Source of the DNA: a virus | Lineage: Duplodnaviria; Heunggongvirae; Uroviricota; Caudoviricetes | Virus record (IMG/VR): IMGVR_UViG_2778261067_000003 | Location: 1-14,003 of that record | Strand: one strand, 5' to 3' | Length of the DNA: 14,003 nt | In this document: positions 1 through 12,934 of the stretch, piece by piece | Position numbering within the stretch: the stretch's first letter is position 1 | Layout of the letters: each line of letters opens with the position of its first letter | The notes under the pieces: model-generated | Seen by the model: only the letters and a program-made list of their open reading frames with translations | What the model was told of the DNA's origin: nothing | Database searches by the model: none | Translations under genes and position numbers: made by a program

Positions 1-95
1 ACCGTCATCCCTGGTTCAAAGCTCTGCTGAACAATTGCGATCTTTTCCTGTGTGGTACGCCGTCTGCGTTTCTCCGGCCCTAAGACATCAATCAT
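1..95 (-). CDS. insC: IS2 OrfA/InsC transposase subunit, N-terminal part (partial, runs off the window)
   Basis: ATG at 93-95 on the minus strand, translating [31 protein letters not shown]..., the recalled InsC N-terminus. Open to the window edge, so it is absent from the ORF track. Confidence 0.75.
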
Positions 96-186
96 CTGTT
101 CTCCAATGACTAGTCTAAAAACTAGTATTAAGACTATCACTTATTTAAGTGATATTGGTTGTCTGGAGATTCAGGAGGCCAGTCTA
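1..186 (-). mobile_element. IS2 insertion sequence, left end (IRL plus start of orfA), continuing beyond the window edge
   Basis: Reverse complement of 186..71 reads TAGACTGGCCTCCTGAATCTCCAGACAACCAATATCACTTAAATAAGTGATAGTCTTAATACTAGTTTTTAGACTAGTCATTGGAGAACAGATGATTGATGTC..., which matches the IS2 terminus as I remember it. Not checked against ISfinder. Confidence 0.8.
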
Positions 187-435
187 ATGGCCACAGAACA
201 GGTAAAGACTTCCGGCAGGTTTCAGCACCCGCCAGAACTGCGCCAGACACTGGTCCAGCCACTTCAGGTAATCATCGTCGCCCTTCCACTGGTTATCCCA
301 GCCTTCAGGCTTCACTTTAAAGTACGGCGGGTCCGTGACTATCAGGTCAACAGAATTTTCGGGTAACGACCGGATAAATTCCAGGCAGTCGGCGTTGATT
401 AACTCACAACTGGATATTTTTACAGTATTAAGCAT
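187..435 (-). pseudogene. N6-adenine DNA methyltransferase (beta-class, DPPY motif), N-terminal 83 codons, interrupted by IS2
   Basis: Track ORF 184..435 carries ...VDLIVTDPPYF..., motif IV of amino-methyltransferases placed near the N-terminus as in beta-class enzymes. The TAG stop at 184-186 is supplied by the first bases of the IS2 terminus, and 83 aa is far short of a full enzyme. Confidence 0.7.
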
Positions 436-572: not shown

Positions 573-600
573 AAATAAAAAAGCCTTCAGGACTGAAGGC
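573..600 (-). terminator. Rho-independent terminator (minus strand)
   Basis: Stem 583-589 GCCTTCA / 594-600 TGAAGGC with loop GGAC; on the minus-strand transcript it is followed by UUUUUUAUUU (plus-strand A-run 573-582). It overlaps the stop of the 587..784 ORF. Confidence 0.55.
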
Positions 601-784
601 GTCTGTAACAACCGAACTGATAGTCTGCCAGACCCGCCATAACAAGCTGGGTCAGTATTAGCTGGCAGCGTTCGCGTGAAAGGTACGTATTCTGTGCAAT
701 CTCCCCGACAGTCGCCGGTTCGGTGGCACTTAATTCATTAAAAACCACTCTGGCGGTTTCGGTCATATCCTGCTGTTTCAGCAT
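587..784 (-). CDS. Small hypothetical protein (about 65 aa) with a possible HTH/winged-helix segment
   Basis: Track ORF 587..877 trimmed to the internal ATG at 782-784 (MLKQQDMTETARVVFNELSATEPATVGEIAQNTYLSRERCQLILTQL...), with a purine-rich stretch about 10 nt upstream. A terminator sits at its 3' end. Function unknown. Confidence 0.45.
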   Translation of the reverse strand: MLKQQDMTETARVVFNELSATEPATVGEIAQNTYLSRERCQLILTQLVMAGLADYQFGCYRRLQS

Positions 785-957: not shown

Positions 958-1671
958 TTAACGTACTCTGACAGTATTAATTTCAAAATCATTAATATTT
1001 CCGCTATTAAATATAACGAATTTCTTACCCCCACTCCTGTATGATTTCGATAACACCAGACGATCATCATAGCGCGCAATAATGTAATACCATACATTCT
1101 CATAGTGGACCGTCTGATATTCCCTCTTAAACTGTGGTTTGTACCAACCGGCAATAAGAGAGAATGCCCAGAAATAAATCATAAACCCAGCCATCATGAA
1201 CTCAATTCGGTGATGGCGAATAACAGACATTTCCGAAAAACATTTGACTGAAACAAGTCTTCTTCCAGACCTGACAAAAAGCGTGATTGCAAAGGCAGCA
1301 AGAACACAGAAAATCAGTACATCTGGCTCAACATGCTGATGAATTACAGAAAACTCCAGAACAGGTGGAATAAAAAGCAGCAATATCGCGAGAAAAAGCC
1401 GGATAAAACTCAAATTTTGTATATTGCGCTTTTGTTTTATGCCCAAAAAGAAAACAATACCAACTCCCCATCCAATAAGGAATATAACGATAACTGTCAC
1501 AGCATAAAACAAACTTCGTGCTACATCATCGACACCAGCCCCGACAACCCACCATGGAAAGCCATAGTAAAATGAAGTACCCCATCCATAGAAATAAGCG
1601 CTCCCCCATCCGAGACAGCCCATATAAGCAACAAAAAGTGAAGAGTTTCTGAGCAGAGCACTGTCATCCAT
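958..1671 (-). CDS. Multi-pass membrane protein (about 5 predicted TM segments plus a roughly 60-aa soluble C-terminus), function unknown; AT-rich moron
   Basis: 237-aa ORF with a true ATG at 1669-1671. Hydrophobic stretches such as SLFYAVTVIVIFLIGWGVGIVFFLGI and LSFIRLFLAILLLFIPPVL. The region is visibly AT-rich compared with its neighbours. No recognisable catalytic motif. Confidence 0.6.
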   Translation of the reverse strand: MDDSALLRNSSLFVAYMGCLGWGSAYFYGWGTSFYYGFPWWVVGAGVDDVARSLFYAVTVIVIFLIGWGVGIVFFLGIKQKRNIQNLSFIRLFLAILLLFIPPVLEFSVIHQHVEPDVLIFCVLAAFAITLFVRSGRRLVSVKCFSEMSVIRHHRIEFMMAGFMIYFWAFSLIAGWYKPQFKREYQTVHYENVWYYIIARYDDRLVLSKSYRSGGKKFVIFNSGNINDFEINTVRVR

Positions 1672-1924: not shown

Positions 1925-2590
1925 CTATGAAAATGCCGCCTTTTGTTTTGAACGTGTTCCCTCCACCAACAATAAAGCTTCACTATCCAGCCGATGAAAA
2001 ATGTGTTTCATTGCAACCCAGTGACCAGTAAATGTCTTGGACCAGTTTTTGGTTGTTACTCCCACCAGTAACGCCAGTTCCTGGTATTCGTAACCTTCCC
2101 CACCAAAAAGCTCAGCTTTTACCGCCTGCGCCGCCAACCAGATCAACGTCTTCAGGCGCACCAGAGTTTTTCCTGCAATTTTTCTGGTACCGGATTGAGC
2201 ATTAAATTCAGTCCACGCCCACTGCGTTATCGCGATCTGATGCTCCCAGCAAATGCTACCGCTGTAACACCACAGCAGCCAGGCTTTATGATGTTCTTCA
2301 AGAGACAGAACGGCGCGTCGCCATGATGATGTCGAAAACTCAACCGGACTGACCAGGGCAATTGATGAGCCTTTCGCCAGTGATTGTTTACCCGGGATCG
2401 GGGGATTATCCCGCGTGATCATTTTTCCGGTTACCTCATCGCGGTAACGAATTTTTTTGCGTCTGTAACGCCCTGTATCGAACAGGGCATTTTCCTGCCA
2501 GGCTTCCAGCTGGCCTTTTGTCGACCCACTAAGATCCGCAGTGGCAATCATGAGTTGCTCACGAACAAACTGTAAATACTGGTTATTCAT
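1925..2590 (-). CDS. Putative late-gene antiterminator Q-like protein
   Basis: 221 aa from the ATG at 2588-2590 (the track start at 2596 is GTG). The start overlaps the rusA stop (ATGAATAA). The call rests on synteny (RusA, then this gene, then pR'/tR'); family assignment by sequence is uncertain. Confidence 0.5.
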   Translation of the reverse strand: MNNQYLQFVREQLMIATADLSGSTKGQLEAWQENALFDTGRYRRKKIRYRDEVTGKMITRDNPPIPGKQSLAKGSSIALVSPVEFSTSSWRRAVLSLEEHHKAWLLWCYSGSICWEHQIAITQWAWTEFNAQSGTRKIAGKTLVRLKTLIWLAAQAVKAELFGGEGYEYQELALLVGVTTKNWSKTFTGHWVAMKHIFHRLDSEALLLVEGTRSKQKAAFS

Positions 2591-2945
2591 GCACACCCAC
2601 CTCTGTAATTCTTATCTCCAGCCGTCCACCAGATACTGGCTTGCCACGTACAATATTGATTTCATCAAACTGCTCATCGTCCATTAACAACCCCGCGTGC
2701 GTCAGCGCATCCAGCGGTGCTTTCAGAATATTGTCCAGGTCACGGCGGCGCTTATCCGGTGGCTCTGCAATAATTTTTATTGCCAGCCGTCCGGACAGGC
2801 TTAATTTCAGTCGCTGCTGGCGAACAATAAGCGCCACTGCCCGGCGATAACGCTCCCCGGCTTTTGATACAAAATATGTGCTGCCACGGCGTCGCCAGTA
2901 AGTGTTCACCGTCGGCGGGTAAGGTAAAACCAAATCTATGAGCAT
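2583..2945 (-). CDS. rusA: Holliday junction resolvase RusA
   Basis: 120 aa, MLIDLVLPYPPTVNTYWRRRG...RRDLDNILKAPLDALTHAGLLMDDEQ...GGRLEIRITE, closely resembling E. coli RusA as I recall it. RBS AAGAGGTGA upstream of the ATG at 2943-2945. Confidence 0.9.
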   Translation of the reverse strand: MLIDLVLPYPPTVNTYWRRRGSTYFVSKAGERYRRAVALIVRQQRLKLSLSGRLAIKIIAEPPDKRRRDLDNILKAPLDALTHAGLLMDDEQFDEINIVRGKPVSGGRLEIRITEVGVHE

Positions 2946-4451: not shown

Positions 4452-5330
4452 TCAGACTGCAAGATCCAAGGGAAGATCAGAAATATCCTTTAATCTTTTA
4501 CCATTAACCATCACGGAAAGCATGTCAGCTGCATCGCTGAGCCCCAGTATTTCAACTGCTGATATAAGTTCATAAAGCGCAAAATGATACACGCAATCTA
4601 TATCACCAGTACCAAGAGCAATAGACGCCAGACGACTTGGAGTAGGCTCAGCAGTAACAACCATTACATGAGGGAGATTTCCCTTACGGTTGCGAATAAG
4701 ATTTAATGCCTCAGAACGAGCATTCTGGGCCCGGTCGCTTCTTATTGTCCATTTGCAGGAAATACTTGCGTGTAATATTGGTTTCCCACCATTCGAACTC
4801 CTGAGAGCTGACATGCGGGTAACAGAATCATCCACCAGTAATTCAGGACTGTTGATAACTTGATCACATTCAGGTTCTCTTTCAACAATAATATCTGGTG
4901 AAATCGTATAATCACTCCCCAGTGCAGCAGCTAGCTGAGGATTACTTTTTGCAGCACTATCCAATGCTATAAGATGGGCATATTGTTCATATTTAGCTAT
5001 CTCTAATCTGTTTCTACCAGAAACCTGATGTACATTCCATTTTCCAGGGCGTAAGTGGCTGAGTTTAAAAAAGGTTTTTTCTATAAACTCTGCGCAGATA
5101 CTCTCAAACTGATTACCAGATGTTTGCCCTGCAACACGTTCACCAATCGTTTCAGCCTGCAAGAAGCGAGCAATTTCTCTTGCTATAGCTTTACTGTTTT
5201 TGTTACTGCTATCTGCGTTACTAACAACTCCGGCAGTATTAATTGTGAGCGTATTCAGTAACAATTGGGCATGAAACTCCTTTCTGGCTTCAGCAAAACC
5301 AACTATGCTGTCAACCAAATCTCCATTCAT
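4452..5330 (-). CDS. Type II restriction endonuclease, NgoMIV/Cfr10I/Bse634I-like (predicted CCGG-core recognition)
   Basis: 292 aa, ATG at 5328-5330 with AAGGA RBS, 13 bp after the methyltransferase stop. PD-(D/E)XK-type signature ...SPDIIVE... (D146) and ...SCKWTIRSDRAQNARSE... (K193, E207). The D-to-K (47) and K-to-E (14) spacing matches what I recall for NgoMIV (D140/K187/E201). Confidence 0.75.
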   Translation of the reverse strand: MNGDLVDSIVGFAEARKEFHAQLLLNTLTINTAGVVSNADSSNKNSKAIAREIARFLQAETIGERVAGQTSGNQFESICAEFIEKTFFKLSHLRPGKWNVHQVSGRNRLEIAKYEQYAHLIALDSAAKSNPQLAAALGSDYTISPDIIVEREPECDQVINSPELLVDDSVTRMSALRSSNGGKPILHASISCKWTIRSDRAQNARSEALNLIRNRKGNLPHVMVVTAEPTPSRLASIALGTGDIDCVYHFALYELISAVEILGLSDAADMLSVMVNGKRLKDISDLPLDLAV

Positions 5331-5343
5331 TTCTGGATTTCCT

Positions 5344-6468
5344 TCAGGCTACTTGACTATTCTTACTGATGTTATTCTTATACCGTCCCTGCAAAACTCC
5401 ATACACATATTGTGCGATTTTTGCCGCAAATAGCGGTGGAACAGCATTCCCGATCTGCTTTGCAATCTCAGTTTTTGAACCGGTAAAAATGAAATTATCA
5501 GGAAAAGACATTAATCTCGCTGCCTCACGATGAGTTATTGGCCGATCCTCTTCCGGATGTAAATATCGCCCTTTCTCCGGTTTGAAAAACTCAGTACGAA
5601 TCGTTACTGAAGGTCTGTCCCACCACAGACGTCCAAACAAATCGGTCCCTCCAGATTTCTTTTTTAGCCAGCACGCCGGGGTTATATCAGGTCTTTTTTT
5701 CTGTAAATCGAAACGGTTACCTCCTGGTGGAACCGCTTTATATCGCTCCAGAGAAACAGGTGTGGGATTACGCCCAAAATGTAAGTTCAGCGGAGGAAGT
5801 TCATTACGAATATCAGTTCCAACAGGAGCAGGTAAGTCACCAATTGCATCACGCGTACAGACCCATTCAGGCAAAGCGACATCCTTATCAGGGGAACGAT
5901 GCGTTGGTGCTGGCGGGAACGCCGGAATACTATGCACATCGAAGAGTTCTCGTTTGATACCGATTGCTATCGTTCGTTTTCTTGTCTGAGGTACTCCATA
6001 GTCAGCAGTATTCAACACCATTGGATTAAGCAGAATAAAGCCCATGGATTTCGCTCTAAACGTAATGTCCGCAAACTCATCGCTTATCAGCAATCCGGGG
6101 ACATTTTCCATGACGAACATACAAGCCCTTGAACGCTCAATGACATCCATATAAGGCTCCCACAATGCTCTTCGGTGATCACCATAACGATTCTTATTCA
6201 ATAAACTGAATCCCTGACACGGGGGGCCACCTATGACCACATCAGCCTCAGGAACAGTATTGCTGGATGCCCACTCCTCAATATTTGCCTGAACTCCATG
6301 CAAACCAAAATTGGCATTGTAGGTATTTATAGCTGCAGCATTATTATCAATAGCAAGGATACTTTCAAAGTAGTCAGACATCTCTCCATGAAGAAAACCA
6401 TAAGATAATCCACCTGCCCCACAAAAGAGGTCTATCACTCTGAATTTATTTAATTCTTTCATCCGCAT
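5344..6468 (-). CDS. DNA cytosine-5 methyltransferase (Type II R-M modification subunit)
   Basis: 374 aa with canonical m5C motifs: I DLFCGAGGLSYGF, IV GPPCQGFS (catalytic Cys), VI ENVPGL, VIII QTRKR, X GNAVPP. ATG at 6466-6468. Confidence 0.9.
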   Translation of the reverse strand: MRMKELNKFRVIDLFCGAGGLSYGFLHGEMSDYFESILAIDNNAAAINTYNANFGLHGVQANIEEWASSNTVPEADVVIGGPPCQGFSLLNKNRYGDHRRALWEPYMDVIERSRACMFVMENVPGLLISDEFADITFRAKSMGFILLNPMVLNTADYGVPQTRKRTIAIGIKRELFDVHSIPAFPPAPTHRSPDKDVALPEWVCTRDAIGDLPAPVGTDIRNELPPLNLHFGRNPTPVSLERYKAVPPGGNRFDLQKKRPDITPACWLKKKSGGTDLFGRLWWDRPSVTIRTEFFKPEKGRYLHPEEDRPITHREAARLMSFPDNFIFTGSKTEIAKQIGNAVPPLFAAKIAQYVYGVLQGRYKNNISKNSQVA

Positions 6469-6646: not shown

Positions 6647-7333
6647 TCACTCCTTCTCTTCTTTTCCGTAGTGGAGTTGGCCAATTTTGATAAGAGGGCG
6701 TCCCTGAGATTTGCGGTGTAGATTGGTATCGCGCAGAGAATACACACAGCCACAATATTCCTGCTGATAGAATTTTTCGCGCTTGCTGATTTCAATCATA
6801 CGGGACGAGCCGCCCTGCTTGCGCCAGTTATAATCCCAGTACACCATACCCGGATAATGCGCAACAGCTCGCCGCCCACACTCGTTAACCTGCTGCATAT
6901 TTTTCCAGCGTGAAATGCCCAGTGAACTGCTGATCACACTGAAACCATTTTCAGCAGCGTACAACGCTGTCCGCTCAAAACGCATGTCAAAACACATGGT
7001 ACAACGGATCCCCCTCTCAGGCTCCCATTCCATTCCTTTGGCACGTTCAAACCAGTTGTCGGTGTCGTAATCAGCATCGATAAACGGCACGCCGTGTTGT
7101 TCAGCAAAGCGAATATTTTCATCCTTACGAATTAAATACTCTTTCTGAGGATGAATGTTCGGGTTGTAGAAAAAGATGGTGTAGTCGATTCCCGAGGCCT
7201 GAAGCGCCTCCATCACTTCACCGGAACATGGAGCACAGCAAGAGTGCAGTAGTAGTTTGTTTGCCCCGTTTGGGAGTTCCAATTTAGGCCGTTTGAAATC
7301 AGCAATAGTCATAAATATTTTTATTGGGGTCAT
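6647..7333 (-). CDS. queH: QueH (DUF208) family protein, epoxyqueuosine reductase homolog
   Basis: 228 aa with conserved cysteine clusters [22 protein letters not shown] and EYCGCVYS, typical of QueH/DUF208. No other queuosine pathway genes are present in the window. Confidence 0.8.
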
Positions 7334-10840: not shown

Positions 10841-11067
10841 GAATCCCCCCCTTGGTTAGAAGGCGGATTATGATCAGAACCGGGAATGACAACCGTCGGT
10901 ATGTGTAACTCATATTTGAGCGCCCCGGCAGTGACTGCCTGAATTAGCAACGCCCATTTCCACGGAACCTCTTCCCCCCACATGCTGACTGTGGTTTTTG
11001 ACGTTCCTAGAGCTGCGGCTGTTTTAACAACTCCGCCAAAATAGCCTAATACTTCTGATTTTTTCAT
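10837..11067 (-). CDS. Cro-like / YdaS-like HTH regulator
   Basis: 76 aa from the ATG at 11065-11067 (MKKSEVLGYFGGVVKTAAALGTSKTTVSMWGEEVP...) with GGAG about 8 nt upstream. Divergent from the CI-like repressor; HTH pattern of the YdaS family. Confidence 0.7.
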   Translation of the reverse strand: MKKSEVLGYFGGVVKTAAALGTSKTTVSMWGEEVPWKWALLIQAVTAGALKYELHIPTVVIPGSDHNPPSNQGGDS

Positions 11068-11141
11068 GAGTCGCTCCATAAAACTGAACGTCAAAAGTTT
11101 AATAATCAAAACCAAAGAAAGTCAAGAAACAAAACCATCTG

Positions 11142-11159
11142 TGTTTTAAAATCAAAACA
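11142..11159. promoter_or_regulatory. Operator-like palindrome TGTTTT-N6-AAAACA abutting the repressor start codon
   Basis: TGTTTTaaaatcAAAACA at 11142-11159, a perfect 6-bp inverted repeat; the cI-like ATG is 11159-11161, implying a leaderless or very short-leader repressor mRNA. An identical motif recurs at 11864-11881. Confidence 0.5.
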
Positions 11160-11797
11160 TGAGCAAGCAAACTATATCTGAACGCATAACCCAACGTATG
11201 CATGCGCTAAACCTGAAAGGCAAAGACCTTGTCAATGGCACTGGCGCATCAAAAGGCTCCGTAAGTCAATGGATGAACGGTGGAGGAGCGCCGTCCTCGC
11301 GTTACATAAGTTCACTGGCAAAAATATTGAAAGTAAACGAAAATTGGCTTCTTAATGGAGGAGAGTTAAATACAGGTGATTCGCTTGATCTATCTTTACC
11401 GCCGATAAAAACGGTTCCGCTACTATCACTTCAGCAGGCAGCAAGCTGGAGTGATTATATGAAAAATTCCTCAATAACCTCTTGTGTGCAGCTTGTCGGA
11501 GAAATCCCGGTCAATACCTTTGCAGTTGTTCTAGAGAGTGACAGTATGTCAACATCTGGTGGGGGAGTTTCCATCCCAAATGGTTCAACAGTTTTTGTTG
11601 ATCCCGATCGAACCGTACAACCAGGAAATATTGTCCTTGCCTTACCCAAAGGGACCACAACACCTGTCATTCGTAAACTGGAGATAGAAGGGCCGGATAT
11701 TCTTTTAGTCCCCACGAATCCTCGCTACCCTTCAATTATGCTGGATGATCTATCTTGCATATTGGGCGTATGCTTTAAAATTCAACAAGATATTTAA
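11159..11797 (+). CDS. Lambda CI-type prophage repressor (N-terminal HTH, C-terminal S24 LexA-like autopeptidase)
   Basis: 212 aa. N-terminus ...LNLKGKDLVNGTGASKGSVSQWMNG... (HTH). C-terminus ...LESDSMS...VFVDPDRTVQPGNIVLA...VIRKLE... aligns with the Ser/Lys dyad region of lambda CI/LexA. Confidence 0.9.
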   Translation: MSKQTISERITQRMHALNLKGKDLVNGTGASKGSVSQWMNGGGAPSSRYISSLAKILKVNENWLLNGGELNTGDSLDLSLPPIKTVPLLSLQQAASWSDYMKNSSITSCVQLVGEIPVNTFAVVLESDSMSTSGGGVSIPNGSTVFVDPDRTVQPGNIVLALPKGTTTPVIRKLEIEGPDILLVPTNPRYPSIMLDDLSCILGVCFKIQQDI

Positions 11798-11863
11798 CCA
11801 ACCTCATCTATTTGATTAACTGTATGCCATCGTGGTGATGGCTTAACAGCTGCCTGCTTAAAA

Positions 11864-11910
11864 TGTTTTGATAAAAAAACATTGACCTGAAAAGTTCGTT
11901 TTTCTAAACT
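11864..11910 (+). promoter_or_regulatory. Second operator copy fused to a candidate promoter for the dicB-type operon
   Basis: TGTTTTgataaaAAAACA at 11864-11881, immediately followed by TTGACC (11882-11887), 17 bp, TAAACT (11905-11910). Confidence 0.45.
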
Positions 11911-12089
11911 TCATTCGTTCCCTCACCCCATCCTACAGAATGCAGGGCAATACTTCGAGTTACCAGGCAGTGGTCAGGGGTTAAGTAGCCAGCCCGAGGC
12001 GTAAGAACATGACGGCAGGGTTCAACTTTAATAACTATGCAGCAGGTTTTTGTTCCGCTACCCCGGCGTTAAGGGGAAATGAGGTCAGC

Positions 12090-12245
12090 ATGGATACTAT
12101 CGATCTTGGCAACAACGAATCTCTGGTGTACGGCGTGTTTCCAAACCAGGACGGCACCTTCACCGCAATGACGTATACAAAAAGCAAAACGTTTAAAACC
12201 GAAAATGGTGCCCGTCGCTGGCTGGAAAGAAACTCAGGTGAGTGA
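12090..12245 (+). CDS. ydfA: YdfA-like small protein (51 aa), first gene of the dicB-type operon
   Basis: ATG at 12090 with GAGG 5 nt upstream (MDTIDLGNNESLVYGVFPNQDGTFTAMTYTKSKTFKTENGARRWLERNSGE). Length and position match Qin ydfA as I recall it. The track ORF 12009..12245 is an N-terminal over-extension. Confidence 0.65.
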   Translation: MDTIDLGNNESLVYGVFPNQDGTFTAMTYTKSKTFKTENGARRWLERNSGE

Positions 12246-12246
12246 T

Positions 12247-12375
12247 ATGGATTTCAACACAATCATGGAAAAGGCTTACGAAGAATACTTCGAAGGCCTT
12301 GCCGAAGGCGAAGAAGCCCTCAGCTTCAGTGAGTTTAAACAGGCGCTTTCCAGTTCGGCAAAATCTAACGGCTGA
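12247..12375 (+). CDS. ydfB: YdfB-like small protein (42 aa)
   Basis: Not in the track (too short). ATG 12247-12249 overlaps the upstream stop (TGATATG). Translation MDFNTIMEKAYEEYFEGLAEGEEALSFSEFKQALSSSAKSNG, stop at 12373-12375. Confidence 0.6.
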   Translation: MDFNTIMEKAYEEYFEGLAEGEEALSFSEFKQALSSSAKSNG

Positions 12376-12404
12376 TAAGCGAAACAGCACCGCGAGGAAT
12401 CAGT

Positions 12405-12623
12405 ATGCAGAAACGAGAACCCGTCATCATCGCGCCAGACTATACCGATGATGAACTTTATGAGTGGATGCACCAGAAAATTAAGGCTGCGCAGGACCTG
12501 AAATGGGCCAATGAAGCCAAGACTAAGCAGGCTGAAAATCTGTCCGCTCTGGAGCAGGATATCACCAGGCTGGAAAAAGCAGCGGCATTAAGCATTGCCA
12601 GAATGATTACATACCCGCGTTAA
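12405..12623 (+). CDS. ydfC: YdfC-like small protein (72 aa)
   Basis: Track ORF with AGGAA RBS before the ATG at 12405. Length and position match Qin ydfC (72 aa) as recalled. Confidence 0.65.
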   Translation: MQKREPVIIAPDYTDDELYEWMHQKIKAAQDLKWANEAKTKQAENLSALEQDITRLEKAAALSIARMITYPR

Positions 12624-12934
12624 TAGCTAACCAACGAAGCTAAGGTTGGTAATTAAAGAGTTCTCCACGGGTGAGCATCCGGCACTGACAGTTTACTGAA
12701 AGGATATTTCCCTGAAAAGTCAGACCATAACGCGAAAGCGCACGGCGAGGTAGCTGGTTCATAGATAGCCTGTCGTTAAATTTTCGTCGACCGTGCGCTT
12801 CCGGTTGTGGCACTCCGCGAAATGGCGCGGCGGTAAGTATGGCGGGGTTATTCCTTCCCCGTTGAGGACACCGGGTTGTCAGGTTGACCATACGCTTAAG
12901 TGACAACCCCGCTGCAACGCCCTCTGTTATCAAT

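Follow-up and report, generated by a model that had tools for sequence, protein, structure and literature searches.

What has become of the methyltransferase gene at the left end of this prophage sequence, where an open reading frame runs straight into an insertion element? The window, by which we mean the whole 14,003-bp stretch of DNA that was analyzed, is the entire draft contig PTRU01000051.1 of assembly GCA_002965245.1, as identified by exact-protein look-up. The source contig breaks inside IS2, and the left side is unreadable in the source assembly; sequence beyond that end was obtained from the complete E. coli genomes of RefSeq and through the same look-up. Our explanation, which as a whole we hold with great confidence, is that a single IS2 lies in a gene of the M.EcoGI/GII type, that no active enzyme is made, that the allele is inherited, and that the loss reflects neutral decay of a late prophage function. 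The features that bear on this question are collected in Table 1.

Table 1. Positions in the window of the IS2 end, the interrupted methyltransferase gene, and the neighboring prophage genes
Feature	Position	Strand	Basis
Left end of IS2 (IS2 nt 1-186)	1..186	-	184/186 identity with K-12 IS2A
IS2 terminal inverted repeat IRL	about 146-186	-	Within IS2 left end, untranslated leader next
IS2 orfA start (InsC/InsA-type HTH protein), cut by contig end	1..95	-	Translation
5' part of M.EcoGI/GII-family N6-adenine DNA methyltransferase gene	184..435	-	PF01555; M.EcoGII identity; RefSeq pseudogene
One copy of 5-bp target-site duplication ATGGC (GCCAT in gene sense)	187..191	.	L001/L002 comparison
DPPY catalytic motif (motif IV), residues 35-38	322..333	-	GACCCGCCGTAC on minus strand, read directly
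Terminator-like hairpin and T-run between 65-aa ORF and methyltransferase start	583..600	-	Consensus scan only; putative function
65-aa ORF preceding methyltransferase gene	587..784	-	ORF list; hypothetical protein in ECA64 and STEC1585
Late-gene antiterminator Q	1925..2596	-	RefSeq of identical region; precomputed PF06323 Phage_antiter_Q
NgoMIV-family type II restriction endonuclease, full length	4452..5330	-	PF09015, E 6e-127, profile 1-275 of 275
C5-cytosine DNA methyltransferase, partner	5344..6468	-	PF00145, E 4e-54, profile 1-320 of 324; RefSeq DNA cytosine methyltransferase

The original prediction placed an IS2 terminus at the left of the stretch, with orfA beginning at position 95 and leaving the window, and both points hold. 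The reverse complement of window positions 1 to 186 was compared with IS2A of E. coli K-12 MG1655 (NC_000913.3, 381260-382590). Only IS2 nt 11 and 175 (window 176 and 12) differ, and the identity extends up to the element tip TAGACTGG..., of which window position 186 is the exact last base. We do not regard this match as a product of chance, because it covers 186 nt at 99%, ends at the tip of the element, and abuts a gene with a known intact form. The orfA ATG occupies positions 95 to 93 of the minus strand; 31 codons follow before the frame passes the window edge, and their translation equals the start of the orfA product from a full IS2 copy. At window 176, which lies inside the left terminal repeat, a T replaces the C of K-12 IS2A. 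The same substitution is found in four other sequences (L006, L008, L009, and L014), and the canonical base is found in two (L007 and L013) with the same insertion site. Since some same-site copies are canonical, the substitution at IS2 nt 11 is read from these sequences as a change or a gene conversion after insertion.

The second IS2 junction was inferred from relatives with the same junction, not read in the source genome. There are at least five such assemblies (ECA64, CB6837, CP027520.1, UGBM01000005.1, and CAUEIB010000003.1), identical or nearly so to the window around the junction. In ECA64 the element is complete (L001, 2856-4186): it measures 1331 bp, agrees with IS2A at 1329/1331 positions, and has both imperfect terminal inverted repeats. 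Besides ECA64, the sequences L006 to L009 show the same IS2 spacing of 1331 bp and identical flanks. Both orfA and orfB are open in the full ECA64 copy, which RefSeq labels an IS3-like IS2 family transposase with programmed frameshift; the two frames are joined by a programmed -1 frameshift, and the DDE (rve) domain is present (precomputed Pfam domains of IS2: HTH_Tnp_1, HTH_21, rve, and rve_3). ATGGC stands on both sides of IS2 in ECA64 and occurs once in the uninterrupted allele of STEC1585 (L002), which aligns straight through the insertion site; it is therefore a 5-bp target-site duplication. Past the right end of IS2 comes the rest of the methyltransferase gene, starting GCCATCGCCTGGCATCTG... 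and 269 codons long. RefSeq already calls this 3' part in ECA64 a pseudogene missing its N terminus and flags the CDS equivalent to positions 184-435 as a pseudogene missing its C terminus. The other IS2 end, the 5-bp duplication, the 3' part of the gene, and an uninterrupted homolog had been named at the outset as the things to look for, and all four are thus accounted for outside the source genome.

One point at the junction deserves separate mention. Uninterrupted alleles align with the window from position 168 or 171, not 187, which raised the suspicion of a misplaced IS2 boundary; the boundary at 186 stands. When the tip is set against the gene just past the insertion site (window 168-186), it reads CTGGCCTCCTGA-ATC against CTGGCAT-CTGATATC. 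This resemblance to the displaced target is weak (local score of 8, reached by 3.5% of shuffles) and could be due to chance or to a mild target preference.

How widely is the junction shared? Four RefSeq records of complete E. coli genomes match the first 1000 window bases at 99.9%. The records CM144250 and OZ392456 share both record length and match coordinates, as do CM144248 and OZ392453, so that the four probably stem from just two strains, ECA64 and CB6837. Over the first 5000 window bases ECA64 shows one difference. The exact-protein look-up retrieved the same junction from several short-read assemblies as well, while the exact IS2/gene junction is absent from GTDB representative genomes, IMG/VR viral contigs, and JGI metagenome contigs. 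The break in the source contig is explained by the multicopy nature of the IS repeat.

The gene itself can be identified from both the visible stub and its restored form. The minus-strand ORF at 184-435 comprises 83 codons, of which the native gene supplies positions 187-435; the TAG that closes it (186-184) consists of the first three bases of IS2, so that the frame indeed lacks a stop of its own, as had been read from the sequence. The stub matches the Pfam family PF01555 (N6_N4_Mtase; E 4e-10, profile positions 1-55 of 221), as do the 3' fragment and the intact allele. Together with the DPPY motif, this match agrees with the proposal of a DPPY-type prophage methyltransferase. Removal in silico of IS2 and one ATGGC copy restores an ORF of 352 codons, the product of which is identical to that of the intact STEC1585 allele at 351/352 residues. 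In the restored protein the motifs follow the order DPPY - TRD - FxGxG, with FMGSG at about residues 310-314. The same arrangement, an N-terminal DPPY, a central TRD, and a C-terminal FxGxG, characterizes the beta-class enzyme M.EcoGII, an experimentally characterized non-specific N6-adenine methyltransferase from a prophage of E. coli O104:H4 C227-11 (PMC5778455).

The similarity to M.EcoGII extends well beyond motif order. All 83 residues encoded in the window are identical to the M.EcoGII N terminus (83/83), and the restored protein is identical to M.EcoGII in 329/353 aligned columns (about 93%), a reference that was machine-read from the supplement of PMC11551740, so that a few of the differences may be misread residues. 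The differences lie mostly in residues 180-275 and in the C-terminal tail, and the restored protein has 352 residues compared with 349 for M.EcoGII. Structure matches in the PDB were to other beta-class enzymes (unnamed methyltransferases, M.RsrI, CcrM, and M1.MboII; E 1e-24 or weaker); the structure of M.EcoGII is absent from the PDB, and these matches add beta-class membership alone. By sequence, the disrupted enzyme is assigned to the M.EcoGI/GII family and not to a site-specific family, and the gene is very probably adenine specific, in line with the adenine type originally proposed. Like M.EcoGII and M.EcoGI, it resides in a lambdoid prophage; unlike M.EcoGII, it is split by IS2. Close relatives are found in phages: identity with the intact STEC1585 allele is 98-99% for the enzymes of Escherichia phage 1720a-02 and numerous Stx2a phages (e.g., Stx2a_WGPS2 gp29), and the authors of the M.EcoGII study named phage 1720a-02 as the carrier of a very similar enzyme (PMC5778455). 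Homologues that are about 93% similar have been predicted to be non-specific and were silent in O111 lysogens (PMC6602927).

These observations indicate that one IS2 (IS3 family, 1331 bp) entered the gene at codon 83/84 by transposition and duplicated ATGGC. The 83-residue stub keeps DPPY, and the target-recognition region and the C-terminal AdoMet-binding FxGxG are physically separated from it. Because IS2 after codon 83 parts DPPY from FxGxG, neither gene fragment is predicted to make active enzyme. The original claim that the phage's own methyltransferase is inactivated thus stands, with the break lying between the two motifs. The allele is inherited; its junction recurs unchanged in several assemblies of independent origin.

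The surroundings of the gene bear on when the enzyme would normally act. The ECA64 region belongs to a lambdoid prophage that adjoins potC. It encodes an integrase, an excisionase, and a RecE-like exonuclease, along with dicB, genes for repressors and replication, QueH, and the restriction-modification (R-M) pair. It also has DUF968, RusA, Q and two small ORFs, the methyltransferase gene split by IS2, the tRNA-Ile and tRNA-Arg genes, and a SASA esterase, holin, lysozyme, and terminase. Q is located upstream of the methyltransferase gene and is co-directional with it. In Stx2 phages, likewise, the methyltransferase gene follows a 65-aa ORF and precedes the ileZ/argN tRNA genes; the 65-aa hypothetical ORF of Stx2a phage WGPS2 at the equivalent spot was likened to the one in the window by position and size, not by alignment. 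In WGPS2, ileZ and argN are followed by argO and stx2AB. The ECA64-type prophage has in the place of stx two tRNA genes, a TolA-like ORF, a methyltransferase fragment, and an HTH gene, and stx is not annotated in the 49-kb ECA64 stretch examined. The conserved module runs from the 65-aa ORF through the methyltransferase and tRNA genes (then stx in Stx phages) to a nanS-p-like esterase and the lysis genes. Since the methyltransferase gene lies downstream of Q, on the same strand and within this module, it is most likely a late, Q-dependent gene that is silent in the lysogen. This would agree with the finding that M.EcoGII is silent in the lysogen and with the suggestion of its authors that the enzyme is switched on as the prophage excises (PMC5778455). 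By position and by analogy with this literature, the intact enzyme would add methyl groups to the adenines of progeny phage DNA and blunt restriction in the next host. For the allele studied here, a specificity for adenine, expression at a late stage, and a role against restriction may be proposed on the same analogy. A promoter scan of positions 1-2700 gave 5 sites compared with 4.6 in shuffles and did not place pR'.

Several other features of the prophage were observed along the way. A short second methyltransferase pseudogene fragment with an internal stop lies outside the window, past the tRNA genes (L001, 500-664; L002, 669-833); it accompanies both IS2-bearing and intact alleles and has no connection with the IS2 insertion. 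Between Q and the 65-aa ORF, a 237-aa ORF (958-1671, minus strand) is without a match in the Pfam scan and carries a precomputed assignment to PF27470 (TfpB); WGPS2 has other genes at the equivalent spot. In the early region, a QueH homologue (epoxyqueuosine reductase; PF02677, E 1e-65) at 6647-7333 on the minus strand adjoins the R-M pair. The ECA64 prophage, 99.98% identical elsewhere, has no equivalent of the immunity region at 10846-11923, which includes a 212-aa ORF (11159-11797), and positions 11924-12675 are just 95.9% identical to it, a pattern that looks like mosaic replacement of the repressor module.

The intact m5C R-M system that had been noted about 4 kb away is borne out by gene content. 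The endonuclease and C5-cytosine methyltransferase genes are both full length by Pfam, lie on the same strand, 13 bp apart, and are unaffected by IS2. The pair resembles the NgoMIV system of Neisseria gonorrhoeae (GCCGGC) in that the endonuclease fits the whole profile and the methyltransferase gene is immediately upstream on the same strand. It differs in its location, being situated within an E. coli prophage, in the nin-like part. The window contains one GCCGGC site (10767) compared with 2.6 +/- 1.6 in shuffles, a difference that is not significant.

Once formed, the null allele seems to have outlived the element that caused it. Two short-read contigs without IS2, L010 (SRR3657563) and L011 (ERR4843315), encode the same 83-aa product; the scar allele is represented in short-read (Logan) assemblies only, that of L010 in 7 samples and 4 similar places. 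In place of GGCCAT-CGC-CTGGCATCTG in the intact gene, the scar reads GGCCAT-TAGA-CTGGCATCTG (junction sequence GGCCATTAGACTGGCATCTG in both contigs, at 6226-6275 of L010 and 1698-1747 of L011, equivalent to window 184-191 and beyond). It is a +1 frameshift with the same TAG and represents what would be left by a deletion of 1335 bp with its end points in two copies of CTGGC: the first lies at IS2 nt 5-9, the second in the gene, 3 bp past the duplicated target. Nearly precise excision of this kind is a known microhomology-mediated process. The L010 flanks show no differences from the IS2-bearing allele (0/1749 upstream and 0/922 downstream), whereas the intact STEC1585 allele has 89 upstream and 4 downstream differences from the same flanks. 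For L011 the downstream flank is likewise identical (0/922), the upstream sequence in the contig being too short to compare. Because the L010 flanks are those of the IS2 allele and the intact allele differs, the scar is, judged by these flanks, a descendant of the insertion allele that lost IS2 by nearly precise excision. The scar allele is absent from the complete E. coli genomes searched, in which the best matches, at 98.5%, are intact alleles.

The persistence of the truncation in an IS2-free form is compatible with neutrality or with selection. Conceivably, the insertion and later the scar persist as the enzyme harms the lysogen if its expression is leaky, or exposes it to m6A-dependent restriction. 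Constitutive expression of M.EcoGII is indeed harmful to the cell (PMC5778455), and the null state was retained in the derived scar with identical flanks. On the other hand, the gene family is present in 2027 of 5426 complete E. coli genomes, at up to seven places per genome, and in 1917 of these 2027 at least one place covers at least 80% of the gene, which argues against a general cost. In addition, the homologues are silent in lysogens (PMC5778455, PMC6602927), and one insertion lineage with one derived scar counts as a single event. We therefore consider selected loss unlikely as an explanation of the locus. The more specific proposition that selection favors the null state in this E. coli lineage, the scar having kept the 83-aa truncation instead of restoring the gene, seems to us decidedly doubtful; if true, it would mean that lysogens pay a cost for an M.EcoGII-type enzyme. 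The IS2 allele is a rare, lineage-specific lesion, and the loss would, on our assumption, be explained most simply by neutral decay of a prophage function dispensable to the lysogen.

An effect of IS2 on neighboring genes is a very unlikely primary explanation. The element sits between Q and the tRNA and lysis genes, co-directional with them, and IS2 insertions are classically polar, so that it might act mainly as a regulatory element in the late operon, through polarity or an outward promoter, with the methyltransferase knock-out being incidental. Q-modified RNA polymerase, however, is expected from lambda biology to read through terminators, and further lesions of the ECA64 prophage point to general decay instead. 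These are an ISEc23 copy (IS66 family; L003, 44416-46832) between the terminase large subunit and capsid genes and a truncated DUF1327 pseudogene near the holin gene (L003, 37347-37595), both of which fit general prophage decay. Finally, it is hardly credible that the source IS2 marks the joint of an IS2-mediated deletion or inversion, with the 3' part of the gene elsewhere or lost: although the far side of the element is unseen in the source contig and IS2 is multicopy in related genomes, in five assemblies with an identical junction and flanking haplotype the IS2 is complete, has ATGGC duplicated around it, and leads on to the remainder of the gene, and a contig break in a multicopy repeat is expected short-read behavior.

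In conclusion, this is an ordinary IS2 insertion in a methyltransferase gene, one that near-identical public genomes already annotate as pseudogene fragments around IS2. To the original prediction the present analysis adds the M.EcoGI/GII identity of the gene, the sequence of the duplicated target (ATGGC), and the scar allele derived from the insertion. The end point of the draft contig is accounted for as well, since it falls in a multicopy IS. The ORF at 184-435 should be annotated as the 5' piece of an M.EcoGII-family gene disrupted by IS2 and not as a small gene. For the phage, the consequence would be that any particles released from such a lysogen would be without the broad adenine methylation that is thought to counter restriction in new hosts.
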